Of a stretch of DNA of 64,000 nucleotides, positions 13,018 through 56,423 are shown one piece after another. The stretch's first letter is position 1. The number at the start of each line of letters is the position of its first letter. Origin of the DNA: an uncultured virus (IMG/VR IMGVR_UViG_3300028833_006000) (taxonomy: Duplodnaviria; Heunggongvirae; Uroviricota; Caudoviricetes); IMG/VR virus record IMGVR_UViG_3300028833_006000; one strand, 5' to 3'. The notes under the pieces were generated by a model, which worked only from the letters and a program-made list of their open reading frames with translations, ran no database searches and was not told the DNA's origin. Position numbers and translations under genes: made by a program.

Positions 13018-14364
13018 ATGACATCTATTGAGCCTCTTGCGTCCAGAATGCGACCGACGACACTTGATGATGTCATCGGACAACAACACATTCTCGGACC
13101 GGATAAAATGCTTCGATATCTGATAGAAGCAGATATGCTATCGTCAATTATTTTGTACGGCCCTCCGGGAACAGGAAAAACAACGATAGCCAATGTCATC
13201 GCACACACAACACAGTCGCATTTCAAAAGCGTCAATGCGACCACTTCCGGAAAAAAGGACATACAGGAAGTAATTGATTTTGCACAAAAAGAACTGGAAA
13301 ATAACGCAAAGAAGACAATCCTGTTCATAGACGAAATCCATCGCTTCAACAAGGCACAGCAGGATTATCTGTTGCCATATGTCGAAAATGGGACAGTCAT
13401 ACTTGTGGGCGCGACAACCGAAAACCCTTACTTTGAAGTAAATGGCGCTTTATTATCCAGATCCAATATCTTCGAAGTGAATCCGTTGTCGTCAGAGGAC
13501 ATTGTATCTGCCTTACACAGAATCATAGACAAACTGAATAAAGAAACCCCGACAATCATCTATAATGCCGATGAAGATGCTCTGCAGTTCTTCGCTGATG
13601 CCGCAAACGGCGACGCACGAAATGCAATCAACGGATTAGACCTTGCAATCAGGGTAACACCGGCATTCGGAGCTGCCAATGGTTCAGCGTCCCAAATAAA
13701 TATCACAAAAGATATTGCCATGAACTGTATTCAAAAGAAAATCGTACAGTATGACAAGGATGGAGATAATCACTATGACACCATCTCGGCATTCATTGAA
13801 TCAATGAAACACAGTGAAGTGGATGCTGCGCTATACTATCTGGCAAGGATGATCGACAGAGGTGAAGATCCAAAATACATCGCAAGACGACTCATGGTCT
13901 GTGCATCCATGGACATCGGACTCGCTGATCCAAACGCCTTGAACTTGGCAGCCAGCACATTCCAAACGGTAGAAAAAGTCGGGCTTCCCGAATGTGTATG
14001 GGCATTAGCATTATCGACTGTGTATAACTGCGTTGCTCCAAAAACACATTCTGTTGCAGACGCCTATGAACAGGCGATGGAAGATGTGCAGAATATTCCG
14101 AATGTGGAGATTCCGTACTTCCTCAAAGATGAATCTTATAAATCAGCACATAAACTTGGACATGGTGGTATCACTGACGTATTTGCCGCTCCATTTCACT
14201 ACGATGGCAGTGATTGCATGCCAACGGCGCTTACCGGTCACAAATATTTCCATCCGACGAATTTCGGATATGAAGAGACAGTAAGCAAAGTCATGACGTG
14301 GTACGATGATTACAAAAAGACGCATCCATGCCCTGACTATTATCCGAAAGGAGAAACGCAATAA
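13018..14364 (+). CDS. rarA: Replication-associated recombination protein A (RarA/MgsA), divergent copy
   Basis: PLASRMRP, GPPGTGKTT, FIDEIHRFNKAQQD, GATTENPYF, YDKDGDNHYDTISAF. Confidence 0.93.
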   Translation: MTSIEPLASRMRPTTLDDVIGQQHILGPDKMLRYLIEADMLSSIILYGPPGTGKTTIANVIAHTTQSHFKSVNATTSGKKDIQEVIDFAQKELENNAKKTILFIDEIHRFNKAQQDYLLPYVENGTVILVGATTENPYFEVNGALLSRSNIFEVNPLSSEDIVSALHRIIDKLNKETPTIIYNADEDALQFFADAANGDARNAINGLDLAIRVTPAFGAANGSASQINITKDIAMNCIQKKIVQYDKDGDNHYDTISAFIESMKHSEVDAALYYLARMIDRGEDPKYIARRLMVCASMDIGLADPNALNLAASTFQTVEKVGLPECVWALALSTVYNCVAPKTHSVADAYEQAMEDVQNIPNVEIPYFLKDESYKSAHKLGHGGITDVFAAPFHYDGSDCMPTALTGHKYFHPTNFGYEETVSKVMTWYDDYKKTHPCPDYYPKGETQ

Positions 14365-16258: not shown

Positions 16259-17515
16259 ATGGATAAGTTATTAGACAAGGTTTTTGAGACGCAAAGATGG
16301 ACTGATGCGCTGCGTACAGGTCAGGAAAAAGGCATCGACCGATCCATACTCAAGCAGTTATGTCGTAAATCAGAGCGTGACAAACTAAAGGCGCAAATCC
16401 TGAATGATGATTATGAGATAGCACCGCCGCATGAAGCGCAAATTCCCAAGGATAATAACGAATTTCGTACAGTTTACGTAAATACGGGCATTGACAGAGT
16501 ACTGCTTGCCATCATCAACGATGTCATATTTGAGATGTGTCATGATATGGTGCATCCGACCTGCAAAAGTTATCAGAAAGGATTGAGCTGCGGAAAAACC
16601 GTGCAGCAGATCAGTAAGAGAATAGCCTGCATGCAAACGGACATCATCGGTACCAAAATCGACCTCACAAAATACTTCGATTCAGTTCCTATCCGGTACA
16701 TTGATGCTGTCTTTGATAAAATCACTGACAGGATAGGTGAGTCACATATTCTCACGATGCTGCGAAAATATTACCACATGGATATCGTGCTTGATATGAA
16801 AAAGCAGCCTATCGAGAAATACTCATCGTTGCGACAGGGTTGTGCATTTGCCGCATTTCTTGCCGACGCAAGTCTGTTTGATATAGACGAATGTATCAGC
16901 AAAATGAACGTGGACTATGTCAGATATTCAGACGACATACTCATCATCGGCGAAGAATGGGAAAGTGCTTATGCTTTGTTAAAGGATAAGCTTGGACAGA
17001 TGGAGCTTACGTTAAATCCGAAAAAAGTAGAAATACTCCATAAAAACATATGGTTCAAATTTCTCGGATTTGAGCTCAAAAATGATATGATCACTCTGTC
17101 AAGCAAACGTATCAAGACATTCCAGCACGATATTGAAGAATGTACAATACGTTCACATTTCACCGACCCGGAAGAAATAATACGGTGTGTTAACCGTAAA
17201 TTGTATATGGGACCCGACGGTTACTGTTGGGGAACAAGTGTACTTCCTGTCATCAATTCTGATAAAGACATACAAACAATGAACTGCTTCATTATGGACG
17301 CTATCAGGGCAGCCATGACAGGAAAAACCAACATCGGTGGACTTGGATGTGCGAAAACGCAGGAAAATGGACTTATTCTGCGTGCTAAAGGTCGCAATGT
17401 TAAACACAATAAAGAAAAAATTCCAACTTTAAGCAACTATACCACACTCAAATGTATGCAAAATGCCATTAGGGCATCCAAACAGGCATTTGACTTATTA
17501 GTCGCTACAATGTGA
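16259..17515 (+). CDS. Reverse transcriptase (stand-alone; not group II intron, DGR or canonical retron type)
   Basis: IPKDNNEFRTV, SYQKG, KIDLTKYFDSV, LRQGCAFAAFLAD, YVRYSDDIL, LNPKK, FKFLGF; AGGAG RBS. Confidence 0.93.
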   Translation: MDKLLDKVFETQRWTDALRTGQEKGIDRSILKQLCRKSERDKLKAQILNDDYEIAPPHEAQIPKDNNEFRTVYVNTGIDRVLLAIINDVIFEMCHDMVHPTCKSYQKGLSCGKTVQQISKRIACMQTDIIGTKIDLTKYFDSVPIRYIDAVFDKITDRIGESHILTMLRKYYHMDIVLDMKKQPIEKYSSLRQGCAFAAFLADASLFDIDECISKMNVDYVRYSDDILIIGEEWESAYALLKDKLGQMELTLNPKKVEILHKNIWFKFLGFELKNDMITLSSKRIKTFQHDIEECTIRSHFTDPEEIIRCVNRKLYMGPDGYCWGTSVLPVINSDKDIQTMNCFIMDAIRAAMTGKTNIGGLGCAKTQENGLILRAKGRNVKHNKEKIPTLSNYTTLKCMQNAIRASKQAFDLLVATM

Positions 17516-18386
17516 TTGTCACAAGTCATAACCATAGATAGTATAGTCTGATATTGTGAACAACATAACCCGCATATATACATTCTGCGCTTTATGAGGA
17601 TAATTTCTAAAGTGTGGATGATGTGTATATTCGTATGCTCGAATGTATATATGCTGAATAAGCTTATCAGGATACTGCAGCGTCCCACAGGATGACCTGT
17701 TGGACAGGGACTCCCGTGGATGGTCAATCCGGATACCAGTCAAGACTCTGAAGTGCCAGCTGGCGGAAGCAGATGAATGGGCACGGTGAGATTCTGCCTC
17801 AAGCCGGATGAGAATGATCAACTCCCCGCACGCTGTTGCGATGGAAGGTGAGATGAGTCAGTGCGGCTCGGGCTATCGAGTACAGGCTGATGGAGATGAG
17901 GATGATGCTGTCGGCGATTGGATTGGATCCAGCCGTCGTTCAATCAGAACCAAGGATGGAACTCCGATTGAAATCAGAAGCCAGGCAAAGACATCTGGGT
18001 CGCAGGGTGAGGTGAGCAGAGGAGAGCTGAGAGGACCTCCTCAACCAAGCTCCGCAGAACCTGCAAATCCACCTGCATATCTACCTTCTGGTTCGGAAAG
18101 AAAGAAAGAAGAACTCGAATGGAAGAAGAACTTCGCATCCTGGAATTCGAACTTCTACTGCAGTAACCGAAGAAGATCTTAATCTCTGAAGACCAGGTAG
18201 AAGCCATGCAAATGATGCTGGAGAAATCCTGAATGAGATATGTAGATCTTAAGATAAGCTTTTAGAAATCTGAGCATCTACTCGTATCAAACATCTTCGA
18301 TGTTCTGCTACTTGTAGAATGCATATATCACACATTTATAGTAATATACTATATGTTGTATCAATATCTATGATTAGATAATCACA
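17511..18386 (+). ncRNA. RT-associated large structured non-coding RNA candidate (about 875 nt)
   Basis: Nested long-range complementarity between the 5' and 3' flanks, many internal hairpins, no credible ORF; lies between the RT stop and the next RBS. Confidence 0.7.
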
Positions 18387-18401: not shown

Positions 18402-19337
18402 ATGCTCATGGTCGATTTTACAACAAGGACTTTGAAGAATCAGGATTCTGTTCTAATCGATCATGGGTCAGCCCGATCGAATTACAAAATTCCAGAAACC
18501 ATCATCACCTGGAATATGTTAGAAAGACTATATACCGTATATGAAACATCTGTTCCTGATAAAAACAGACCGGCATTGTGTACTGCAAAAACAGAATCAG
18601 ATCTGACAATGGCTGACATCATCTTCGGCGCAAAACGATCTAAAGCTCAGGAAGATTTCGAACAGGCCATACTTATCGGTATATTGAACGGTTCGCTTCG
18701 TTATCCTGATAATACAAAATGGTTTTGGCAATCGTCTAAATACAGAAACATGATCATCCCAAAATGGATTTTCGAATCATGCGATAAAACAGTTCATCAT
18801 GCGCGAAACTCCGTTCAAGAAAATGAACTTTGGGATCGAAATCTGGTTGCAAGACGATTAAGACAGATACTGAACACAGATCCGGAAGCCAATATTCCAT
18901 GGAATTCCGATTTCAAAACATGTCTCCTGACCATCAGGGAAGAACTGGCAGAAAAAACGAATATACGATATTTCACAGATGAAATCATAGACGAATTGCT
19001 TCATGCATATATGACTCATCTGCCGAAAAAGTATATCCAGGAAAAAGCCAGAATAGGACAATACATCGCCGCTCTCAAAAAGGCAAAAATGGCATACAAA
19101 AAAGTCAAAGCCATAGACGATATTTTAGCCAATTGCCCTATGTATGCGTATGAATATCAGAATAAAAAATGGATCACAGCCTACGGACATTTCGTGAATC
19201 ATAAGACGATTGCGTTCATATCAGAGTTTATACCTGATGTAAGCATGCCTGATTTTTCCGAGAATACAGACAGGAACGTCGAACAATACGTTCTTTTGAA
19301 TAAAAACGCAATCTGTAAATATGCAGAAATTCATTAG
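18402..19337 (+). CDS. Putative RT-system accessory protein
   Basis: AGAAAGGG RBS directly after the ncRNA closing stem; LERLY..Y..SVP, KWFWQS and KKWITAY motifs. Confidence 0.7.
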   Translation: MLMVDFTTRTLKNQDSVLIDHGSARSNYKIPETIITWNMLERLYTVYETSVPDKNRPALCTAKTESDLTMADIIFGAKRSKAQEDFEQAILIGILNGSLRYPDNTKWFWQSSKYRNMIIPKWIFESCDKTVHHARNSVQENELWDRNLVARRLRQILNTDPEANIPWNSDFKTCLLTIREELAEKTNIRYFTDEIIDELLHAYMTHLPKKYIQEKARIGQYIAALKKAKMAYKKVKAIDDILANCPMYAYEYQNKKWITAYGHFVNHKTIAFISEFIPDVSMPDFSENTDRNVEQYVLLNKNAICKYAEIH

Positions 19338-19353
19338 CAAAGGAGGAAACAAG

Positions 19354-19635
19354 ATGGCACGAACGGTTCTTACAGAAAACGATAATGGCGTAATCTATCG
19401 CTACAACAAAGTACCAAGCAATATGTTCAATTTTTATCTCTTGCGACGCAGAGCATATAAAAATGGAAAATCACTTTGGCATCTTTGCGTGGAAGTAGCA
19501 GCTCCGCCGGCTGGTAAAAATGCACCGGAATGCATTAACACAGAATCCAATTACATCAAGCTGCAGAGTTTTCGTGGTACAAAGACAGAAGCAGCAAAGC
19601 AACTTGACAACATCATAAAGGAATATACATCATAA
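19354..19635 (+). CDS. hypothetical protein
   Basis: AAGGAGG RBS. Confidence 0.65.
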   Translation: MARTVLTENDNGVIYRYNKVPSNMFNFYLLRRRAYKNGKSLWHLCVEVAAPPAGKNAPECINTESNYIKLQSFRGTKTEAAKQLDNIIKEYTS

Positions 19636-20679: not shown

Positions 20680-21951
20680 ATGAAAACACCCCTTGCCGTC
20701 AGAATGCGGCCTCAAACCATCGATGAAATCGTCGGTCAAAAAGACATTCTGGATGAAAACTCATTGCTCACCCAGATGATCAAAAATGACTTACTTTCAT
20801 CTATCATCTTATACGGCCCGCCCGGCACGGGTAAAACTACAATAGCCAATGTTATAGCCAACTCTACCAACGCCAAATTTGCACAGGTGAATGCTGTCAC
20901 AGATGGTAAGAAAGAGTTGGAGAAAATATGTATGCAGGGCAAGAAGGATTTGGAAAATGATGGCACCCGCACAATATTGTTTATCGATGAAATACATCGT
21001 TTCAACAAAGCGCAACAGGATTATCTGCTTCCGTTTGTCGAACAGGGCATTGTTGTGCTCATCGGTGCTACCACGGAAAACCCATACTTCGAAGTAAACA
21101 AGGCTTTGGTGTCAAGATCCACAATCTTTGAGCTAAAGCCTGTTACGGCTGAAGACATGATCATCTGCTTGAACAGAACACTGAACGATGCCGAGAGAGG
21201 ACTGAAAGAAAATAATCTCGTCATTGATGATGATACAAAAATGTTCATCGCAGAACAGGCAAATGGCGATGTGCGCAGAGCACTATCACTTTTGGAACTA
21301 TCTGCTGTGGTCGTCGGTGACGGTGGAACTATCACCGTTGATACAGTCAAATCGATCATTCAGAAACCAAATCTGACATATGATAAAGACGGCGACAAGC
21401 ACTATGACACCATCTCAGCCTTCATTAAATCGATGAGAGGCTCTGATCCTGACGCCGTATTGTATTATCTTGCTCGAATGATTACGGCCGGCGAAGATCC
21501 AAAATTCATAGCAAGGCGGATAATGATAGCCGCATCGGAAGATGTAGGCAATGCTGATCCGATGGCTATCGTCGTTGCTACCAATGCTGCACTTGCTGCT
21601 GAACGGATAGGGTGGCCCGAAAGCCAGATCATACTGTCACAAGCGGCACTGTATGTCGCTATGGCTCCAAAATCAAACAGTGCCTGTACAGGTATTGAAA
21701 AAGCTATGGCTTACGTTGCCGACCATCCATCAAACGATGTTCCGACTCATCTTCAGGATGCCCATTACAAAAGTGCAGCCAAATTGGGACACGGAATTGG
21801 CTACAAGTACCCACATGATTTTCCGAATCATTGGTGCGAGCAGAATTATCTGCCGGACTCCGTAACCGAATATTTCTATCAGAATAGTCATCAGGGTTAC
21901 GAAGCGATACAGGCAAACTATCAGAACAGCATCCGAAACTCTGATTCATGA
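20680..21951 (+). CDS. rarA: Replication-associated recombination protein A (RarA/MgsA), canonical copy
   Basis: Walker A/B, SAFIKSMRGSDPDA, ASEDVGNADP, HLQDAHY..A.KLGHG.GY.YPHD. Confidence 0.96.
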   Translation: MKTPLAVRMRPQTIDEIVGQKDILDENSLLTQMIKNDLLSSIILYGPPGTGKTTIANVIANSTNAKFAQVNAVTDGKKELEKICMQGKKDLENDGTRTILFIDEIHRFNKAQQDYLLPFVEQGIVVLIGATTENPYFEVNKALVSRSTIFELKPVTAEDMIICLNRTLNDAERGLKENNLVIDDDTKMFIAEQANGDVRRALSLLELSAVVVGDGGTITVDTVKSIIQKPNLTYDKDGDKHYDTISAFIKSMRGSDPDAVLYYLARMITAGEDPKFIARRIMIAASEDVGNADPMAIVVATNAALAAERIGWPESQIILSQAALYVAMAPKSNSACTGIEKAMAYVADHPSNDVPTHLQDAHYKSAAKLGHGIGYKYPHDFPNHWCEQNYLPDSVTEYFYQNSHQGYEAIQANYQNSIRNSDS

Positions 21952-35444: not shown

Positions 35445-35602
35445 ATGCTCACTTCTACGAATAAGACTTTTTTCTACGAAAAGTTATGAGTATTACAACC
35501 AAAACTGTGTATTTTGGTTGCAATAGATATCTCGCAACAAACTATTGTTACACATTTTTTCATATGTCGCTACATAATAAAAACAAAAGGAGAACAGAAA
35601 TT

Positions 35603-36907
35603 ATGAACATCCCTATTGAAGTTGGCAAGGACTTTCAGGACCTTATTGCTAAAGAGGTGAAGTACGTTTCTTCAGCAACGCCTATCTGTCCCTTGATCAA
35701 GGGCGAGCCCGGCATTGGTAAGTCGAGCATCATAAGAGACATGTGCGAGCAGAACGGCTGGCATTTCTTCGAGCTCTTATGCAATCAGCTTGGCGATAGA
35801 GCTGATCTCACAGGCTGCCGTTCCGTAAAGTCAATCGAGACAGTAAACGGCAAAGACGAAGAGATTTGGAAGCAGATCTTCTTCCCTCATCAGGCAGTGC
35901 AGAATGCAATCACCTGCGCACAGAACAACCCTGATGACATCGTTGTTCTCTTCCTCGATGAAATCAACAGAACAAGTGCTGATATCACATCAGCTATCTT
36001 GTCATTCACAACAGCAAGAACAATCGGAACATATCAGTTCCCTGACAATATCCGCTTCATCGTAGCCGGTAACGATAAGGGTAATATCCAGGCATTGGAC
36101 TCTGCGTCTATCTCAAGATTCGCACAGTTCACCTTGATTCCTTCATCGGTTGCATGGATGCAGCATGAGCCGAATCTCAACCCTTACATCGCTCAGGTGC
36201 TCAAGGCAAATCCTTCTTACATTTTCTGCAAGGAATCCGGCATTGAGACATCCACTGTACAGGGTGATGACGGTGATGATTACGAGGCATCTTACGAGTC
36301 ATTCGATGACGCAGCAGAAGGCTTCCAGCAGATCACCACTCCAAGAACTATCTCCGGTTTGAACGCATTCCTTAACAGCTGCGATCTTGCACAGCTCACT
36401 TACTATGTCGGACAGACATACAAGGATTCCGACAGTGGAGAGGACGCATCATTGCTCCAGTGCATTGTCAAGGGCCACGTAGGTGATACACCTTTCGCCG
36501 ATGCACTTTGCTCCGTAATCGCAGATGATGTTTCCAAGGGTATGCTGCAGAAGGCAAACACTATCACAGCTCCTACAGAGCCTGCTGTGTACAAGAGCAT
36601 CTTGAAGTGCAAGGATAGACAGACCAGAAATGACATGATCGCGCAGCTTTCTGATGATGAGAAGTCTGCACTCATTCTCTATGCAACATGGGATAAGGAT
36701 GAGTCCAATGGCAGAGGTATTGCCAACAGAGAGATTATCACTGTTGCTGCTCAGTCCTACAAGGCAAATCTGCTCACCGGTTCATATCAGCAGCAGTTTG
36801 CAAATCTCAAGAGCCACGATGAAATGAACGAGGATAACTATGCCGCTCTCGTAAATTCAGGCACTCCGCTTGGATCAATGATCGGTAGCTTCCTTGGAAT
36901 GGATTAA
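35603..36907 (+). CDS. MoxR-like AAA+ ATPase
   Basis: GEPGIGKS, DLTG, LFLDEINR, AGN, LDSA..SRF, TPRT. Confidence 0.85.
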   Translation: MNIPIEVGKDFQDLIAKEVKYVSSATPICPLIKGEPGIGKSSIIRDMCEQNGWHFFELLCNQLGDRADLTGCRSVKSIETVNGKDEEIWKQIFFPHQAVQNAITCAQNNPDDIVVLFLDEINRTSADITSAILSFTTARTIGTYQFPDNIRFIVAGNDKGNIQALDSASISRFAQFTLIPSSVAWMQHEPNLNPYIAQVLKANPSYIFCKESGIETSTVQGDDGDDYEASYESFDDAAEGFQQITTPRTISGLNAFLNSCDLAQLTYYVGQTYKDSDSGEDASLLQCIVKGHVGDTPFADALCSVIADDVSKGMLQKANTITAPTEPAVYKSILKCKDRQTRNDMIAQLSDDEKSALILYATWDKDESNGRGIANREIITVAAQSYKANLLTGSYQQQFANLKSHDEMNEDNYAALVNSGTPLGSMIGSFLGMD

Positions 36908-36930
36908 ACACAGAAAGGAGCCGACATTCA

Positions 36931-38586
36931 ATGGCTATTACTACAAATAACCAGAAACCAACGGAATTGGTAAGTCTGTATACCGGCTCCGTTATGAATC
37001 AGTTTGATCCATATGATATAGTACGGAATCAGATCACGAAGCCGTTGTTCACACCATTGCTTCCCGGATCTCCCGCAACAATTGAAGAAGATGGAACGCC
37101 TTTGACCGAACAGGATATCACAGATTTGTTGTTTGACTGTTCGGCCGACGGTGTCAATGTGCAGGCTGAAGACCGCATGAAGGAAATCTTCCAGCAGACA
37201 TTGACATACTACAGCAAAGAACTGAATGTTCAGAACGTCTATGCTGTACAGGCTGGCCTGAAAGAGCACATGCCTCTTCCCACATCGAGATGTAAATACG
37301 TACCTACCGATGTAATCGATGCATCAAAACAGCTCATGAGCGGACAGATATCAAAGGACGCATTTTTTGCGACAGTTGCTTTCTACACCAGAGTAGATAC
37401 TTTCGGATACTATTTCGTCAACGACACTGCATGGCAGGAGTTCCAGACATGGATGGTGAATGAGGTGCAGCAGCTCGGCAGCGTCATTCCTGCAGATACC
37501 ATCAAACTCTGCCAGGATCTTCAGAACATCCGTCTCAATCAGCTTACGCAGAGCTTCGTTTTGCGTGATGATGACTCACAGAATAACGATCCATATTCAT
37601 TTGCAAGAATCTTCCCGTTTTATCTTATGATGTATGAAGTTCTCAACACGCAGAACGGCAAGCCGGCATATCTTGCTGGTCATATGCCATTCTCATTTGC
37701 AGAAAATCTGTGCCCAAGAACCATCGTCATCATGAACGTGGAGAAGCATGCCCACGCACATCCTGCTGAAATCCAGAACGAATGGAATATCGTGCAGAAG
37801 GCGTTGCAGATGAGACCAAAGGTGCTTGGCAACAATAAGATTCAGAGTTTGACATCTGTTGCCAGAATGGCTACAAAAATCTCGGCATCCGGTGCAATGA
37901 GAAAGAGCAGCCAGTTATGCAAATCTGCACAAATCAGATTCCGCAAAACGCCTTTGACGATCGCAGACCTTGATTCATATCTGAAAAAGATCTACAAGCA
38001 CGCATCTTTCGTACAGACCTCCGAAAATGCTACCAAATGCTACAAGATGACTTATCAGAGACCGTCAAGAAGAGATCCTGATAACCCGGACAGAATGGGC
38101 AAGACAACAGGCTGGAAGTATAAGCCTGATTTGCACATTTATCTTGACTGCTCCGGATCGATCTCCGAGAGGCAGTATCAGGATGCCATCAAGGCATGTA
38201 TCAAGCTGGCTAAGAAAATGAACGTAAACTTTTACTTCAACTCGTTTTCTCACTACATGAGCCAGACGACCAAGTTGAAGCTCAAGGACCGTTCCGTCAA
38301 CGAGATCTACAAAGAGTTCAGAAAGATTCCTAAGGTTGGCGGCGGTACCGACTATGAACAGATATGGCATTACATCAATCGGAGTCAAAAGTTCAGCAAA
38401 GAAGTCTCAGTCGTAATCTCTGACTTTGAATACACTGCTCCGAATCATTATGTCAAGCATCCGAGATTCCTGTATTATGCACCTATCTCGACAAGTTCAT
38501 GGAATTATATCACAGATGCTGCGAAGGACTTTGCAAAGAGCATGTTAGCAATATGCCCCGGCATCCGTAAGCACATCTTAATGTAA
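36931..38586 (+). CDS. vWA-domain protein (probable MoxR partner)
   Basis: MIDAS DCSGS, GGGTD, VISD near the C-terminus. Confidence 0.82.
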   Translation: MAITTNNQKPTELVSLYTGSVMNQFDPYDIVRNQITKPLFTPLLPGSPATIEEDGTPLTEQDITDLLFDCSADGVNVQAEDRMKEIFQQTLTYYSKELNVQNVYAVQAGLKEHMPLPTSRCKYVPTDVIDASKQLMSGQISKDAFFATVAFYTRVDTFGYYFVNDTAWQEFQTWMVNEVQQLGSVIPADTIKLCQDLQNIRLNQLTQSFVLRDDDSQNNDPYSFARIFPFYLMMYEVLNTQNGKPAYLAGHMPFSFAENLCPRTIVIMNVEKHAHAHPAEIQNEWNIVQKALQMRPKVLGNNKIQSLTSVARMATKISASGAMRKSSQLCKSAQIRFRKTPLTIADLDSYLKKIYKHASFVQTSENATKCYKMTYQRPSRRDPDNPDRMGKTTGWKYKPDLHIYLDCSGSISERQYQDAIKACIKLAKKMNVNFYFNSFSHYMSQTTKLKLKDRSVNEIYKEFRKIPKVGGGTDYEQIWHYINRSQKFSKEVSVVISDFEYTAPNHYVKHPRFLYYAPISTSSWNYITDAAKDFAKSMLAICPGIRKHILM

Positions 38587-38656
38587 CACAAACGCATAGA
38601 GTGCGACACCATGTTGCATTCTATGCGTATTTTCGCGTAAAGGAGAACATAACACC

Positions 38657-40651
38657 ATGCTGAATAATATGAACCCTAATGCTGGTAACGGCAATCCTAA
38701 TTCAGGCGGTACGGGCGGAAGTGGAAATGGTGGTGGAAACGGTGGCAGCGGTATTCCCGCAAGCGCATTCACTGGCGGTTTCGGAATGGATGACGAAGAA
38801 TTTGATCCTAACGAATACCTCATCAACTATAACGAGAAGTTCAAGAATGAACCGCCAATCTTATTCCGTGATGCTGTTATTCAGCAGACACTGTCATGTC
38901 TTATCGGTAAGTTCAAGCCAAACGCACTCTTGATCGGTGCATGTGGCGTCGGTAAGACCAAGATTGTTGAAGATATCGCAAGGCGAATTGCCGTAGGTGA
39001 TATCCTGATTCCAAGCAGATTACAGGACTACACCATCTGGGAATTGCCTATTACAAATATCGTTTCCGGTTCAGGTCTTGTTGGTGAAGTTGAGCGTAAG
39101 ACCAAGAACATCATCAAGTTCGCATCCGATCCTGCCAATAAGGTAATCCTCTTCATTGATGAGATTCATGTTCTCATCGGTCAGAGCAAGACCTACGAGC
39201 AGATTGCTCAGATCATGAAGCCTGCTCTTGCAAGAGGTGATATGAAGGTTATCGGTGCGACGACCAGTCAGGAAGCACAAAACCTCATGGATGATCCTGC
39301 ATTCAACAGACGTTTCACAAGACTTATCGTGGACGAATTCTCTGTTGAGCAGACTGAAGTCATCCTGAACAACATGACTACTTCCATGTTTGACCACTAC
39401 GATAAGAAGATTGCCATCAACGACAAACTCATCAAAGAAGTTGTCAAAGTTGCTGATGAGTACCGTACTATGGGCTCTCACAGACCTGATAACGCCATTA
39501 CTTTGCTTGACCGTGCTATGTCTACGGCATACATCAAGCGTAAGGTCATGGAAGTTCAGGCACAGAATGATCCACAGCTTGCGGCGGCCCTTCAGAACAT
39601 GCCCACTATGTCGCTCTCAAAGTCCCAGCTTCGTGCCACTGCGATGAAGTTGATGACAGGCAACAATGAGAAAGTCATCGTTGATACAAACGAGATGAGA
39701 AATCAGCTCTCTGTTATCAAGGGCCAAGATCAGGCCATCGATTATCTCATCGATACTGTTGAGAGAGACAACTTGTCCCTTTTCCAGAGACAGAAACCGC
39801 TTACAATCCTGTTCGCAGGAAATTCCGGCGTCGGCAAGACAGAAGTGGTCAAGATCATTGCCCAGTATATTACCGGTGTAAAGCCGATCATTTTGAACAT
39901 GACGGAATATACCGATCACACCACGATCAATCGAATCATCGGTTCGTCCGCAGGTTTCGTTGGCTATGACAGCAAAATGGAACTGCCTTTTGACATTCTG
40001 GAAAGCAACCCTTATCAGATCATCCTTCTGGATGAGTTTGAGAAGGCACACCGCTCAGTACAGAGACTCTTTATGTCAGCTTTCGATGAAGGCTACATCA
40101 AGACATCAAGAGGTAAGGTAATTGATTTCTCAAAGTCAATCATCATTGCTACAACCAACGCAGGACACACGACTAAATCAGATCCTATCGGCTTCATCGA
40201 AGATGATGCCCAGACCGGCGCATCCGTGGCTGATTTGTCCAAATTCTTTGATGTGGAATTGCTCAACCGTTTCACAAAGGTTATCAACTTCAATCCAATC
40301 ACAAGAAACCTGTTCAAAGAAATTGCAGCAGATACTTACAAGCGCACGGTTGCCAAAGTCAAATCAAAGCATCCATCATTCACATTCCTTGCAGATGAAA
40401 TGTCTGACGATGAAGTTGAAGAGTTTGCTGAGAAGAACTTTGTCAAGGAATACGGTGCTCGCCCTGTAAGACCGGCGATTCAAAAGATCATCGAGGATGC
40501 TGTCCTCGAATTCAAACACAACAATGCCAATGGATTTGCGTCTGTTGTCAATCCTTCCGATACAGACGACATTCTGTTGCCATCGGGGGAAGAAGATGCA
40601 GCGCAGTCTGAGGATACAGACACGGACAATGCACAGTCCGAAGATGCGTAA
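38657..40651 (+). CDS. Clp/Hsp100 double-AAA ATPase lacking the N-terminal Clp-R domain
   Basis: GACGVGKT, FIDEIH, IGATT, RRF, PDNAITLLD; GNSGVGKT, LLDEFEKAH, TTNAG, PIGF loop, YGARP; G/N-rich N-terminus. Confidence 0.9.
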   Translation: MLNNMNPNAGNGNPNSGGTGGSGNGGGNGGSGIPASAFTGGFGMDDEEFDPNEYLINYNEKFKNEPPILFRDAVIQQTLSCLIGKFKPNALLIGACGVGKTKIVEDIARRIAVGDILIPSRLQDYTIWELPITNIVSGSGLVGEVERKTKNIIKFASDPANKVILFIDEIHVLIGQSKTYEQIAQIMKPALARGDMKVIGATTSQEAQNLMDDPAFNRRFTRLIVDEFSVEQTEVILNNMTTSMFDHYDKKIAINDKLIKEVVKVADEYRTMGSHRPDNAITLLDRAMSTAYIKRKVMEVQAQNDPQLAAALQNMPTMSLSKSQLRATAMKLMTGNNEKVIVDTNEMRNQLSVIKGQDQAIDYLIDTVERDNLSLFQRQKPLTILFAGNSGVGKTEVVKIIAQYITGVKPIILNMTEYTDHTTINRIIGSSAGFVGYDSKMELPFDILESNPYQIILLDEFEKAHRSVQRLFMSAFDEGYIKTSRGKVIDFSKSIIIATTNAGHTTKSDPIGFIEDDAQTGASVADLSKFFDVELLNRFTKVINFNPITRNLFKEIAADTYKRTVAKVKSKHPSFTFLADEMSDDEVEEFAEKNFVKEYGARPVRPAIQKIIEDAVLEFKHNNANGFASVVNPSDTDDILLPSGEEDAAQSEDTDTDNAQSEDA

Positions 40652-40712
40652 GACAATGCCTTGCCAAGCTTAGCTTGGCAAGGTCTTTACCGCTTGTATA
40701 AGGAGGATAAAA

Positions 40713-43700
40713 ATGCCTGTTATCATTGATGATAATAATTCTGCTACACTGGTTGACGTACACGGTGCAGCGAAAACCAATACAAAGGTCAATACCTTAT
40801 ATACGCCTAAGTTCTTTCACAAGAGCATTCTCACAGGTAAGGGTGGCCAGAGCAGGGGTCTCTTGAACGAGAAATGGGATCCTAAAATGCGTGCCAATGG
40901 CTATACATTGACACCAAATCCTGATATGGAACTTTCAACCCAGTATAACAAGGATATCAAGTTATACAACATTCCTTGTTACCTCATTTCAGCGGGTATC
41001 TGGGCTAATTATATTCGTAACATGAAGCGTCCGGCACTCACCGATATGGTGAAAATTGCTGAAAAAGGCACAGAAGAGATTTACATCATCGCTCCGATCC
41101 ATGCACTTCAGATTCAGGAACAGCAGGTTGTGAACGCACCCGGTGCTTCAGCAACACATGCAGAGAAAGCACTTGCACCCCTTATCAACGTATTCATCTT
41201 TGCCATAAAAGACATGAATGATGAAAATCATGTGAATTGTGGCGGCTTACAGATGATGCAGGGTGCTTCGTTCACAAACAACAAGAAGAACGCTTTCTAT
41301 CAGGACATCGTGCCTAACCTTGTGACTTGCTTGCTTGACATCTATAACAAGCTGACAGCAGCAGGCTACAATGTGTATAAGCAGACGCTTGATGACTTCC
41401 TGCAGAATTACAGTCTTTACACGGAACTCTGCAAGGCTTCCGAGAAATGGCTCACACAGGCTGATTATTTCATCAATGATGTTCTCATCAGCAATATCAT
41501 GGCTGTATGCAAGGGCAACTTTGATCCCAACGATCATTTCAGCGTATGGACATCTCCAAAGGATTCAGTCATGGAGATGCTTTCCAGACTTGAGAAATAC
41601 AGCATTCCTCTGGAGCAGTACAAAGCAATGTACGATCACATGAGTGCAAATCTCCCGGCGGATATCGTGGCTACGATTTCAAAAGCAAATCTGAACCTCA
41701 GATTGTCCAATACCCTGCAGCACATGGACCAGAACAGAGCACAGAACACTTTTGTTCCGTGTACAACCCACGTGAAGTCGAAGATTCCTTTCTCTTTGGA
41801 ACAAACGGCTGCCATCGAGTCTGTATCTCCGTTCACACTGGTACAGTCCGGAGCCGGCACAGGAAAGTCAACAGTTATTCGTGGCCGAATCGACCACATG
41901 ATTGCTAATGGCGTTGATCCTCACGACATCACCGTGCTGTCATTCACAAATGCCGCTGCTGACCATATCAAAGACCTTCAGCCGAATGTCCATAGTATGA
42001 CAATCGCAGCGATGCTTCACACGATCTACTCACACAATTATCCGACACATCAGTTGTCATCTTTATCGACAATCCTGAACAGTCTGGATATCTACTTCAG
42101 TCCTAAGAGTAGAACCATATCCGCAGCACAGCGAACATTCGTTGATAAATTCAAGAGAATCCTCGAAAGACTTCGTGACAACAACGAATATACGAAGGCT
42201 AACAACTTCGTAGAGGATTATATCGACGAGACTATCGACGTGCTGAACGTAATCCAGCAGACATCATTGGAACTGGAAAGCATCATTTGCTATCAGAAGA
42301 TGGATACGCTCGTGGAGCCGGATGAAACAAAGACAAAGCATCTCATCATTGACGAGGTGCAGGACAACTCGATCGCTGAGTTCATCTACAGCATCAAGTA
42401 CACCGATAAACATCAGTGCTCGATGTACATTGTAGGTGACTGCTCACAGACTCTTTATGAGTTCAGAGCATCCAATCCGAAGGCACTCAATGTGCTTGAA
42501 GCATCCGGCGTATTCGAGACATATAAGCTTCAGACCAACTATCGTTCAAATCAGGAGATTCTTGATTTTGCGAACGTATTGCTTGGTAACATTGAGGCAA
42601 ACCAGTATGCCAACATTCAGTTGCATGCCAACTCACTTGCTCCGGTCACAAAGAAGAGCTTCCAGAAGGCCGTAACCTTACACTACGAGAGAATGCAGAA
42701 TAAGAGCGCCGTATCTATCGACAACCTTATTTCACACAGCATCGCCGTAGACACAAAGGCGTGGATCGATGACAAGCTTCAGAAAGGTGAGCAGGTAGCA
42801 TTCCTTGCACCGAAGAGATATACTTTGACCAAAATCGAAGATTACCTCAGACGTATCTATGGCATTCCAAGACCTACAAGTCCCGGCATGCCTGATGACA
42901 TTGTGAGTCTTGTACCTGCGCATCCGCACGATAACGCAGTGTTCTCAAAGTTCATCGCAAGATATTGGGACAACATCCAGTATGTTCCGCCTGCAAATAT
43001 CCTTACGACCATCAGAAGAGAGCTTGCTTCCAAGTTTGATTATCTGATGCCTTACAAGAGTCAGGCTGCTTTGCAGAAAGCCAGAGATGATATCTTCGGC
43101 AGACCCGGACAGAACATGGGTATCTACGGTGAATTTGAAGCAATGTACAAGAACCGTGTCGCAACATGGCAGAATCAGGTATCAATGTCCGTTCTCACAA
43201 CGGCGCAGATGCTTGAGGAAGTCAAGAAGATCATGATCACATTCGAAATCCAGCGTAACGCTGTCATGAAGTCAGTAATCTCACAGAAGAATGCTGACAA
43301 CAAGAATTCACAGGCTGTTGAAAATGCGAAGTTCATTCTTTCGACAATCCACAGCGCAAAGGGTCTTGAGTTTGATAATGTCGTTGTCTTCTACGAGAGT
43401 GAATCGGCTGCTTCAGTCGAGGAAGCCACAAAGCGTATGTATTATGTGGCATTTACTCGTGCGAAGAAAGCAGAGTTCATCTTTGCGTATGATACGATGG
43501 CGTATCCGAAGATCTGCGGTGACTATGAAAAGATCATTGATGACCTGGATAAACAGGCGGCAGCAGCTATTGCAAATGGCACTGCTTTACCTGATGACGA
43601 TGATGACGACGATACCGTTGTTATCCAGACAGCCAGCAATACACCAATGGCTGTGCCGGGATTAGTCAAGATCAACGCAGGTGATTCAGATGATGAACCT

Positions 43701-43736
43701 GCTGACAGCATGGATGACGAAGACGAAGATGAATAA
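40713..43736 (+). CDS. UvrD/Rep-like SF1 helicase with long N-terminal extension
   Basis: GAGTGKS, SFTNAAA, IIDEVQD, VGDCSQTLYEFR, LQTNYRS, STIHSAKGLEFD, YYVAFTRAK. Confidence 0.92.
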   Translation: MPVIIDDNNSATLVDVHGAAKTNTKVNTLYTPKFFHKSILTGKGGQSRGLLNEKWDPKMRANGYTLTPNPDMELSTQYNKDIKLYNIPCYLISAGIWANYIRNMKRPALTDMVKIAEKGTEEIYIIAPIHALQIQEQQVVNAPGASATHAEKALAPLINVFIFAIKDMNDENHVNCGGLQMMQGASFTNNKKNAFYQDIVPNLVTCLLDIYNKLTAAGYNVYKQTLDDFLQNYSLYTELCKASEKWLTQADYFINDVLISNIMAVCKGNFDPNDHFSVWTSPKDSVMEMLSRLEKYSIPLEQYKAMYDHMSANLPADIVATISKANLNLRLSNTLQHMDQNRAQNTFVPCTTHVKSKIPFSLEQTAAIESVSPFTLVQSGAGTGKSTVIRGRIDHMIANGVDPHDITVLSFTNAAADHIKDLQPNVHSMTIAAMLHTIYSHNYPTHQLSSLSTILNSLDIYFSPKSRTISAAQRTFVDKFKRILERLRDNNEYTKANNFVEDYIDETIDVLNVIQQTSLELESIICYQKMDTLVEPDETKTKHLIIDEVQDNSIAEFIYSIKYTDKHQCSMYIVGDCSQTLYEFRASNPKALNVLEASGVFETYKLQTNYRSNQEILDFANVLLGNIEANQYANIQLHANSLAPVTKKSFQKAVTLHYERMQNKSAVSIDNLISHSIAVDTKAWIDDKLQKGEQVAFLAPKRYTLTKIEDYLRRIYGIPRPTSPGMPDDIVSLVPAHPHDNAVFSKFIARYWDNIQYVPPANILTTIRRELASKFDYLMPYKSQAALQKARDDIFGRPGQNMGIYGEFEAMYKNRVATWQNQVSMSVLTTAQMLEEVKKIMITFEIQRNAVMKSVISQKNADNKNSQAVENAKFILSTIHSAKGLEFDNVVVFYESESAASVEEATKRMYYVAFTRAKKAEFIFAYDTMAYPKICGDYEKIIDDLDKQAAAAIANGTALPDDDDDDDTVVIQTASNTPMAVPGLVKINAGDSDDEPADSMDDEDEDE

Positions 43737-54521: not shown

Positions 54522-55376
54522 ATGTCCGGCACATTCAATATTGCTACCACAAATCCGCATCTTAATCCAAATCATACAAACCATGTCATATCATGGTCCG
54601 GCGGTAAAGATTCAACCGCCACTGTCATCCTGTTCCATGAGCATGAAAATGAACTGTTAAAACAGGGTGACACAGTTACCATATTATTTGCCGAAGTCAT
54701 GTTTGACCTGAAAAGAAACATCTCAGGTCACAATCCCCAGATCATCAAGTTCATATATGAAAAAAAACAGATTTTTGAATCATGGGGTTACACCGTTCAG
54801 ATACTCCGCGCAGACACAGATTATCTGGATAATTTCTGGCATAAATTAAGCCGTTCGCCAAAACCAGAACGTGTCGGCAAGACATGGGGCTTCGTGCCGG
54901 GCGGCATATGTGCAATCAAACGTGACTGCAAATTGAAACCTATCAACCAATGGAATGAACAGCACGCAAGGGATAATCGCATACAATATATAGGTATTGC
55001 CATCGATGAACCCTCTCGTTTAGAAGCTGTTCATAAACAGCCTGATCAAATATCCCTTCTGGAAAAATATGGTTATACAGAAAATGATGCCATGAACCTA
55101 TGCAGGAAATATAACATGGTATCACCCCAATATTCTATGGAAGGCTTGAAGCGAGATGGCTGCTGGTTCTGTCCAAATGCAAAACTGTGTGAACACAAAG
55201 CGATATACAAAGAAATGCCAGCTGTCTGGCAGGAATATGTAGCTTTGGAACAAACGCCTAATCTGGCGTATCCTAAATGGAATCCATACACCACGCAGAC
55301 ACTGAAGGACCGTGATGAACTCATCCGAAAAGAAGTTCTGGCAGAACAACAAAATGCTATGGATAAACCATCGTAA
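54522..55376 (+). CDS. PAPS-reductase-family (PP-loop) protein
   Basis: SWSGGKDSTA, C..KRDCK, YIGIAIDE..R, RDGCWFCPN. Confidence 0.82.
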   Translation: MSGTFNIATTNPHLNPNHTNHVISWSGGKDSTATVILFHEHENELLKQGDTVTILFAEVMFDLKRNISGHNPQIIKFIYEKKQIFESWGYTVQILRADTDYLDNFWHKLSRSPKPERVGKTWGFVPGGICAIKRDCKLKPINQWNEQHARDNRIQYIGIAIDEPSRLEAVHKQPDQISLLEKYGYTENDAMNLCRKYNMVSPQYSMEGLKRDGCWFCPNAKLCEHKAIYKEMPAVWQEYVALEQTPNLAYPKWNPYTTQTLKDRDELIRKEVLAEQQNAMDKPS

Positions 55377-55673: not shown

Positions 55674-56423
55674 ATGACAAACAGAAAAATCATATGGTAT
55701 AGCTGTGGAGTATCATCAACAATTGCAGGGCTTCTCGCAGACAGAAATGGTGCTGCAGAATGGATCAGAATCTTCCTTCCCAACGAAGACACAGACTCTG
55801 AACGCTATTTAGATGACTGTATAAAAAGATTCAACATCAATGTACAGACTATCACAGCCAACAAAAACGTTGACGAAGTTATCTTGAAGAGGAAATTCAT
55901 CAACTCTCCTTTTGGTGCTCCCTGCACTTCTGTGCTTAAGAAAGAAGTCAGATTCGCCTGGGAGAAAGAAAACATCAAAGATGATGATCACATCACATAC
56001 GTCTGGGGTTTCGATGTCAACGAAGCTCACAGAGCGAAAAGGATGATTGAGAGTTATCCACAGTTTGACCATGAGTTTCCTCTCATTGATAACGGACTCA
56101 CAAAAGCCGATTGCCACGGCATCATCAAAGCACTTGGCGTAAAAAGACCAAGAATGTATGATATGGGCTTTCCTAACAATAACTGCATTATGTGCGTTAA
56201 AGGCGGAATGGGATCTTTCAACCTGTTCAGACAGTACTTCCCCGAACAGTTTGACAAAAGAGCGCAGACTGAACGCCAGATAGGACATTCATGCCTCAAA
56301 AAGTGCTTTCTTGATGAACTCCCGGAAGACGCCGGAAGAAAACCGAAAACAATACCGCAGGATCTTACCGTGACAGGCGAAGCGGCTTTGCAAATCATAA
56401 ACAGCAATCTGGAACAAAAATAG
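55674..56423 (+). CDS. PAPS-reductase-like / adenine nucleotide alpha hydrolase family protein
   Basis: WYSCGVSS, GAPCT..LKK, WGFD..E.HR, FPLID, MYDMGF.NNNCIMCVKGG. Confidence 0.72.
   Translation: MTNRKIIWYSCGVSSTIAGLLADRNGAAEWIRIFLPNEDTDSERYLDDCIKRFNINVQTITANKNVDEVILKRKFINSPFGAPCTSVLKKEVRFAWEKENIKDDDHITYVWGFDVNEAHRAKRMIESYPQFDHEFPLIDNGLTKADCHGIIKALGVKRPRMYDMGFPNNNCIMCVKGGMGSFNLFRQYFPEQFDKRAQTERQIGHSCLKKCFLDELPEDAGRKPKTIPQDLTVTGEAALQIINSNLEQK

Follow-up and report, generated by a model that had tools for sequence, protein, structure and literature searches.

A reverse transcriptase (RT) locus in the window (W; the whole 64,000-nt stretch of DNA analysed here) is a new variant of the UG27 systems and provides a strong, testable clue to their function. 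The usual array of short RNA units appears to be replaced by a predicted single giant UG27 RNA unit of 876 nt (17511..18386, + strand), and its main feature, absent from the preliminary description of this DNA, is a core rich in restriction sites. UG27 occurs at thousands of gut phage loci, and this variant reveals what selection keeps in the template, namely restriction sites. The reading that we favour, with moderate confidence, is that the UG27 RT copies the polylinker of the giant unit into DNA, which would fold back on itself, be converted to a duplex and titrate host restriction enzymes.

Reverse transcriptase and host element

The ORF at 16259..17515 (+ strand) encodes a UG27 RT of 418 aa with a YSDD active site. 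PADLOC matched RT_UG27 over residues 1-418 with an E-value of 1.9e-170, the runner-up being UG26 (2.2e-38), and Pfam RVT_1 also matched. The RT does not fall into the retron clade, the UG27 profile being ahead by more than 130 orders of magnitude. Its relatives formed 20 clusters at 65-88% identity, with DNA for few members, and the accessory form of 309-311 aa described below was found in 7 further clusters and 3 distant ones; on account of these clusters the giant-unit system can be regarded as a lineage. Nineteen metagenome loci (L-numbers) and two genome loci were surveyed. L003 and L006 are complete relatives of W and L007 is a partial one; L005 duplicates the window sequence and does not count as independent. 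Because L003 and L006 resemble each other closely, effectively two to three lineages were compared, too few for a formal covariation test.

The window is syntenic with C57, a 199-kb contig of a Lachnospiraceae bin; a further contig, C7, is related. When 54 ORFs of C57 were compared with Pfam and 41 with PHROGs, a primase, a DNA polymerase, an RNA polymerase subunit-like protein, two methyltransferases and pilus-type genes were identified, and no terminase or capsid gene was found among them. We call the host replicon of the RT locus a large phage-like element of gut Bacillota; the sequencing runs containing it were labelled mostly as sheep or bovine gut. The RT matched two phage records and no plasmid record, the RNA region gave no DNA match to phage and plasmid records, and scans of viral contigs yielded no locus of the RT clade of W. 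In the family of genome G001, one of 401 genomes, G001 itself, carried the RT. Three viral-contig matches to an 18-nt pattern were discarded, no RT being located nearby.

Structure and conservation of the RNA unit

The preliminary description had proposed that nested long-range pairing closes the RNA downstream of the RT into one large domain, and all eight of its arm pairs are present in the sequence. When the RNA region was folded against shuffled sequences, a z of -4.45 was obtained and 0/20 shuffles folded as well. The region 17511-18386 folded at -281.6 kcal/mol, compared with -244.1 +/- 8.8 for 40 whole shuffles and -250.0 +/- 9.5 kcal/mol (best -270.5) for 40 shuffles in which the AT-rich arms and the GC-rich core were kept apart. 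End-to-end pairs numbered 32, against at most 25 in the whole shuffles and at most 28 in the shuffles with arms and core separated. The outer stem overlaps the last codon and the stop of the RT and ends just 5' of the next ribosome site. Folding and compensatory changes in relatives together argue for one closed, precisely bounded domain downstream of the RT and ahead of the following gene, which would measure ~850-865 nt in L003 and L006.

The individual helices fared unevenly. Three of the eight are supported: the outermost (17511-20/18377-86, pairing probability 0.98), 17560-67/18352-59 (0.84, with a compensatory change in relatives) and 17660-68/18253-61 (0.96), the counterpart of the last being verified in no relative. 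The other five all lie below 0.2 in the predicted ensemble. These are 17533-40/18365-72, of which 4/8 pairs are kept in L003 and L006; 17581-88/18314-21 and 17635-40/18272-77, which both clash with a hairpin termed A below; 17667-73/18226-32, which shares two bases with 17660-68/18253-61; and the alternative register 17603-11/18261-69.

The unit begins with the 5' arms of two stems (17511..17530), P1a (17511-20) and P1b (17524-30), which pair with 18377-86 and 18369-75 at probabilities of 0.98 and 0.97. The sequence of P1a differs in L003 and L006 with 8/8 pairs kept, and P1b shows two compensatory changes. The basal hairpin (17536..17549) was observed in 4/4 relatives examined; its bases 17539-44 form a pseudoknot with 18346-51, in which a T-A pair in W corresponds to C-G in L003 and L006, one compensatory change. 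The 5' arms of P2 (17550-56) and P3 (17560-67), at 17550..17567, have their partners at 18362-68 and 18352-59, with two compensatory changes in P2 and one in P3 between W and L003/L006. The 3' arms of the pseudoknot, P3, P2, P1b and P1a follow one another at 18346..18386, as indicated by folding and the relatives. Both components of the UG27 unit base, the basal hairpin and the pseudoknot, are hence present in W, and the parts stand in the order of a canonical unit: pseudoknot loop, stem, insert, ATC-N7-TATAG, pseudoknot partner, stem. P1b, P2, the pseudoknot and the perfect 14-bp stem of hairpin A had not appeared in the preliminary description.

The insert is 755 nt long in W and 721 and 733 nt in L003 and L006, compared with 43-112 nt for canonical hairpins (n=152), the search for which admitted inserts of up to ~150 nt only. 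It starts with hairpin A (17572..17654, + strand), which is supported by four sequences and by the predicted cDNA fold. The Watson-Crick base stem of this hairpin (17572-85/17641-54) contains no mismatch or G-U pair and measures 14, 15, 17 and 13 bp in W, L003, L006 and L007; between W and L003/L006 it shows two compensatory changes and an outer part of different sequence. Next come domain B (17660..18261), the core described below, and domain C (18262..18326), a short 3' hairpin region (18274-81/18314-22, probability 0.84-0.90) for which a similar hairpin was predicted in L003 and L006. Directly downstream, at 18327..18341, lies an exact match to AUC-N7-UANAG, the RT start in tested UG27 systems; it is the one exact copy in the intergenic region of W, and L003 and L006 have TTT-N7-TATAG. 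Canonical units carry the UUYA stop motif 5' of the insert; the corresponding position of W (17568..17571) reads ACCC, and that of L003 and L006 CAAC. With UUYA absent, and with TTT in place of AUC in L003 and L006, the boundaries of copying are uncertain.

According to the accessible text of the UG27 preprint (bioRxiv 10.64898/2026.09.22.753630), the units are 135-167 nt long, form arrays and contain a basal hairpin and a pseudoknot. No such array, with units of ~135-167 nt and one central hairpin each, is present here, but a single unit. A second RT clade (47-52% identity) showed related arrangements. The closed domain of L004 (8212-9671) includes a hairpin A but lacks a clear start motif. 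In L017 (5915-9269), a pair of short two-hairpin units precedes one of >2.8 kb, an array that is possibly an intermediate between ordinary arrays and the giant unit. The >2.8-kb unit, which runs on past the end of the available L017 sequence, contains 41/64 six-base palindromes. In L009 and L013, a tandem duplication, either real or an assembly artefact, takes in a portion of the array and the beginning of the accessory gene.

An Rfam search of the region returned only SNORD36 at 18206-78 (31 bits, E 0.59), which was judged a chance match, and promoter and terminator scans were near chance. In RNA run X1 the locus was found inside one 29-kb contig of flat depth, which might be DNA; the run may share its source with the window DNA. 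The assembled contigs of this run gave no sign of a transcript or cDNA, and no strand-switch joint was seen in the locus contig.

Accessory protein and downstream ORF

The gene at 18402..19337 (+ strand) encodes an accessory protein of 311 aa, in which an RTas346 domain (PADLOC, residues 2-123, E 6.9e-21) is probably fused to a compact, diverged RTas337-like domain. PADLOC gave no RTas337 match on the C-terminal 185 aa, nor in G001, in which no separate large accessory gene was found. When the C-terminal part was compared with our own RTas337 alignment of nine large accessory proteins, hhalign reported 85% (E 6e-6, 138 columns), and in hmmsearch 7/9 C-terminal extensions passed against 1/9 reversed controls. 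The match appeared just with trimmed C-terminal parts, the untrimmed accessory alignment reaching only 0.6% against five large accessory proteins. With our own large-accessory profile, the best frames in the window and in C57 were the fused gene itself, at weak E-values. Unambiguous 346+337 fusions were found in four other database proteins of other lineages (P0132, P0137, P0140, P0239). As far as sequence comparison can tell, the product is thus probably a fusion of the small and large UG27 accessory proteins with the large one shortened. Fold searches with the accessory model (pLDDT 72.7, pTM 0.49) gave nothing at E 0.001. A 207-aa large-accessory-like protein adjoins the RT at L004:7307-9695 and G002:C7:88015-88392, the small accessory gene being ~20 kb away.

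Downstream of the system in W, L003 and L006 follows a 104-aa ORF (19321..19635, + strand), with 58% identity in both relatives and no family match in Pfam or PADLOC. This conserved ORF and a nuclease gene downstream in W and L003 might suggest a tripwire, in which a nuclease or methylase cutting or methylating the RT-bound cDNA would trigger an effector, as in retrons; a broad catalogue of sites would also suit a sensor. However, no toxin domain was found in the accessory protein by Pfam or fold searches, and cDNA synthesis in tested systems requires both accessory proteins (accessible text of the UG27 preprint). The position of the neighbours says little, because they sit in a long syntenic block. 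We regard such a sensor as improbable.

Coding capacity and evolution of the core

Domain B contains 42 sites of 31 commercial restriction specificities. No long reading frame is common to the cores: the longest stop-free stretches in W are 130 aa (+) and 95 aa (-), and at most 132 aa was reached in any core. A 124-aa ORF (17808-18182) was rejected as a gene, as it matched no Pfam family and indels break its frame in a close relative. In relative X5, 10 of 12 listed indels, counted among the best 12 of 18, fell within 17707-18243, most of them 1-2 nt long. The cores of L003 and L006 differ at 105/568 bases; the corresponding figures are 2/145 and 6/130 for the arms and 15% for third positions of the RT. 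Apart from one 18-nt match, no alignment was possible among the cores of W, L003, L004 and L017. Read from these comparisons, the 600-nt core is non-coding and fast-evolving.

Restriction sites in the core

The polylinker look of the core was spotted by eye first and tested afterwards. The test comprised 135 commercial specificities of at least 12 bits, with expectations from dinucleotide shuffles; domain limits followed the structure in W and were drawn by eye in the other loci, which may inflate the figures somewhat. The W core showed 42 sites of 31 specificities against 24.8 expected (z 3.6; 0/200 shuffles reached 42) and its inner core 35 against 23.1 (2/200 shuffles). PstI is among the enzymes with a site in the W core, whereas KpnI and SalI sites do not occur there. 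The excess was stronger in L003 (48/21.9, z 5.8) and L006 (51/21.0, z 6.8), and also in the second clade, in L004 (106/48.9, z 9.1) and L017 (180/87.2, z 10.3). The counts exceeded those of every window of the same replicon (104 windows for W, 344 for L003 and 104 for L004). Eleven controls gave z values from -2.0 to 0.5, among them 16S (0.5), 23S (-1.7), five canonical arrays (-1.7 to 0.2) and the RT gene (-0.1).

Palindromes could also be a by-product of hairpin selection, or of template-switch mutation in structured RNA, and be unrelated to restriction. Palindromes of 8 and 10 bp were likewise in excess, gapped palindromes other than enzyme sites were raised 1.3-fold, and several W palindromes pair with their own second copy, all in line with this explanation. 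Known enzyme sites, however, showed twice the enrichment of gapped palindromes resembling them. Among gapped palindromes, the 22 known sites occurred 87 times against 33.1 expected (2.63-fold; 15/4.4 in W alone) and 490 others of the same shape 875 times against 677 (1.29-fold), a contrast reached in 0/5000 matched permutations (rRNA, p 0.23; canonical arrays, p 0.88). Asymmetric commercial 6-mers were also enriched (99/65.3, 1.52-fold, p 0.006), led by the sites of BciVI, BspMI, AcuI and BbsI, while rRNA and canonical arrays were flat. Retention of palindromes was, moreover, independent of pairing: between L003 and L006, 14/20 were intact against 7.8 expected (1/553 shifts), at paired and unpaired bases alike. 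We therefore assign little probability to a by-product. Bases conserved from L003 to L006 were 111/118 inside palindromes against 344/449 outside (p 3e-6), and from L006 to L003 117/138 against 341/441 (p 0.04). Judged from this pattern of conservation, the palindromes in the core are kept by selection.

Six-base palindromes numbered 13 against 8.3 expected in W, 21/9.2 in L003, 24/10.3 in L006, 52/21.8 in L004 and 95/43.3 in L017; 16S and 23S gave 31/21.1 and 26/39.4. W is the weakest locus in this respect. Its count was reached by 15/200 shuffles, its inner core showed no excess (8/7.0), and its density of 8 per 500 nt is under the 11-12 of some among 157 canonical viral loci. Palindromes without an exact enzyme were also raised (13/7.7), and enrichment per palindrome was unrelated to the number of enzymes known for it (rho -0.08). 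The core sites showed no correspondence to the sites most avoided by the replicon (p 0.81-0.96), and the idea that the core carries the most-avoided sites was abandoned.

Twelve palindromes are missing altogether from the replicon in W, 6 in C57 and 10 in C7. Since C57 in addition encodes two DNA methyltransferases, restriction pressure on these replicons is real. The replicon-absent palindromes are absent from their own cores too (0 observed, 3.9 expected in all), which fits a locus that needs to survive as DNA and is not support for a decoy. Outside the RNA, TTTAAA, ATTAAT and CTAG are absent from the window and AAGCTT from 198 kb of C57 and 136 kb of C7. TTTAAA, which shows the strongest enrichment of all palindromes when the cores are pooled (7/0.8), is lacking in both the W core and the rest of the window; with GATC it is a shared rumen methylation motif according to the accessible text of PMC13519090.

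In 152 non-redundant canonical hairpins from 83 loci, the units of which are related, commercial 5-mers were enriched 1.59-fold (p 0.049) and 6-mers 1.16-fold (p 0.25), so that enzyme sites left a weak signal there, which counts against the decoy reading. With 35 G-U against 24 A-C pairs, pairing at the RNA level and at the DNA level was not separated in these hairpins. TCAGG, described as a methylated motif in the Bacteroides fragilis group in the accessible text of PMC10333322, was frequent in canonical hairpin stems (26/5.2), a single motif match sought after the list had been seen. Canonical UG27 stems of Bacteroides-type phages (L052-L128) heavily reuse CCTGTA, TACAG, ACCGG, TCAGG and CCAG, reflecting either common descent or protein-binding motifs.

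Proposed mechanism

In tested UG27 systems the insert between the start and stop motifs is copied into DNA; reverse transcription starts at AUC of AUC-N7-UANAG and ends after UUYA, producing 50-100-nt hairpins, and the role of the cDNA is stated to be unknown (accessible text of the UG27 preprint). The long-range stems of W form the conserved base, which by analogy would be bound by the RT and the accessory protein, itself probably a fusion. Copying would start at AUC 18327-29 and proceed through domains C and B and hairpin A to about 17570, yielding a cDNA of ~760 nt. The 3' end of this cDNA is predicted to fold on the perfect hairpin A stem, which would place it at the start of domain B, where it could serve as a snap-back primer from which a polymerase would make a second strand over domain B. 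The multicopy double-stranded polylinker, with about 40 sites, would bind and titrate many host restriction enzymes and thereby shield the unmethylated DNA of the element in hosts that differ in their restriction systems. In the predicted single-stranded cDNA fold, 1/21 palindromes in L003 and 6/13 in W were fully paired. The single-stranded fold hence fails to display the sites as duplex in L003, and the decoy model needs a putative second strand. More tentatively, and with slightly less than even confidence, the template could be an expandable site catalogue (0.6 to >2.8 kb) that is turned into a self-primed double-stranded bait for dozens of specificities at once.

Copying might instead be confined to domain C, after TTTA 18261-64, giving an ordinary 65-nt hairpin, with the polylinker acting as genomic DNA or as RNA. 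In W this TTTA lies directly 5' of domain C, and canonical products are 50-100 nt (accessible text of the UG27 preprint), but TTTA is not conserved there in L003 and L006. A single genomic copy, moreover, would present any given enzyme with one or two sites, hardly enough for titration, and in two RT clades the polylinker is found where the unit carries its insert. This reading is unlikely, if the least so of the alternatives considered here.

The polylinker DNA could also act in the opposite direction, as an activator in trans that supplies second sites for two-site host enzymes; after establishment and methylation of the element, its site-poor competitors among phages or plasmids would be restricted more. 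The W core has sites for BspMI, Eco57I/AcuI, BpmI, FokI, EcoRII, AloI, FalI and BsaXI. The accessible text of PMC1474071 names BspMI, Eco57I/AcuI, BpmI, FokI and EcoRII as two-site looping enzymes, and that of PMC1892151 reports that AloI, BaeI and FalI are activated in trans by specific duplexes, so that site-bearing oligoduplexes may activate two-site enzymes rather than block them. As duplexes activate some two-site enzymes and inhibit others (accessible parts of PMC1892151 and PMC1474071), the effect of the polylinker could go in either direction. Against activation, a BplI duplex solely inhibited (PMC1892151, accessible text), UG27 shows no defence-island enrichment in the accessible text of PMC9226505, and the core also has many sites of the classic palindromic type (EcoRI, BamHI, HindIII, PvuII, BglII). 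We consider activation unlikely as well, and titration by the decoy DNA remains our preferred reading.

Relation to known systems

In retrons, the msr-msd RNA is closed by the a1/a2 repeats. The earlier comparison of the closing stems with a1/a2 arms holds as a mere analogy, the RT being UG27 and the stems matching the UG27 unit base. W resembles retrons in that the RT adjoins an RNA closed by terminal stems, the internal part of which would be copied into multicopy DNA; it differs in its RT clade, in the pseudoknotted UG27 base and in that no effector was found. DRT2 is a class 2 UG RT with a pseudoknotted RNA template, as in W, and its cDNA encodes a reading frame, whereas the W core contains no conserved reading frame on either strand, as judged from frames within one core copy. 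Ocr and ArdA are anti-restriction proteins that mimic DNA. The proposed outcome would be alike, with restriction enzymes occupied and incoming DNA surviving, but W would use genuine DNA as its bait, offering a whole range of specific sites.

With UG27 as described in the accessible texts (Mestre et al. 2022, PMC9226505; UG27 preprint), W shares the RT clade with YSDD, the small accessory domain, the unit base with hairpin, pseudoknot and AUC-N7-UANAG, and the location on a large phage-like element. In contrast to these systems, W has one 876-nt unit with a 755-nt multi-domain insert instead of one 50-100-nt hairpin, lacks UUYA at the usual place, has probably fused accessory proteins with the large one shortened, and has an insert rich in restriction sites. 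The preprint mentions units beyond its model in some clades (fig. S34), maybe including that of W, and the words 'restriction', 'decoy', 'fusion' and 'fused' are absent from its main text in the accessible version. The accessible literature, which covered few subscription journals, was found to describe neither a giant UG27 unit nor a restriction-site decoy made by an RT.

If the proposed mechanism is correct, UG27 cDNAs in general may be baits for host DNA-binding defence proteins, and anti-restriction by RNA-encoded decoy DNA would be a new form of counter-defence. It would also provide a natural route to several hundred bases of programmable DNA in cells, and could aid the delivery of DNA into gut bacteria with strong restriction barriers. 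The role of UG27 cDNA becomes testable site by site with standard strains and enzymes.

Additional observations

In L021 (4001-4506), a close relative with 78% identity over the first 85 aa of the RT, window position 16506 is joined to 20403. The deletion of ~3.9 kb takes away the RNA, the accessory gene and the 104-aa ORF, together with the greater part of both the RT and the nuclease gene, so that at least one assembly dispenses with the giant-unit system. In Bacteroides phage BS-TP1 (L051, PQ571274.1), the UG27-type RT carries the annotation "tail protein". Two SspD-like proteins are encoded in the window at 54522-55376 and 55674-56423 (PADLOC E 5e-13 and 4e-9), possibly a DNA-modification module of the element. 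The RT region is flanked by two related AAA+ ATPase genes (window 13018-14364 and 20680-21951), which we take to be of the RarA/MgsA type and which both match the same C57 gene. A block comprising an AAA ATPase, a partner gene, a ClpB-like ATPase and a UvrD helicase is located at 35486-43736 of the window. This block adjoins the RT in L004 and L017; the RT system of L004 lies inside it, and that of W 16 kb off.
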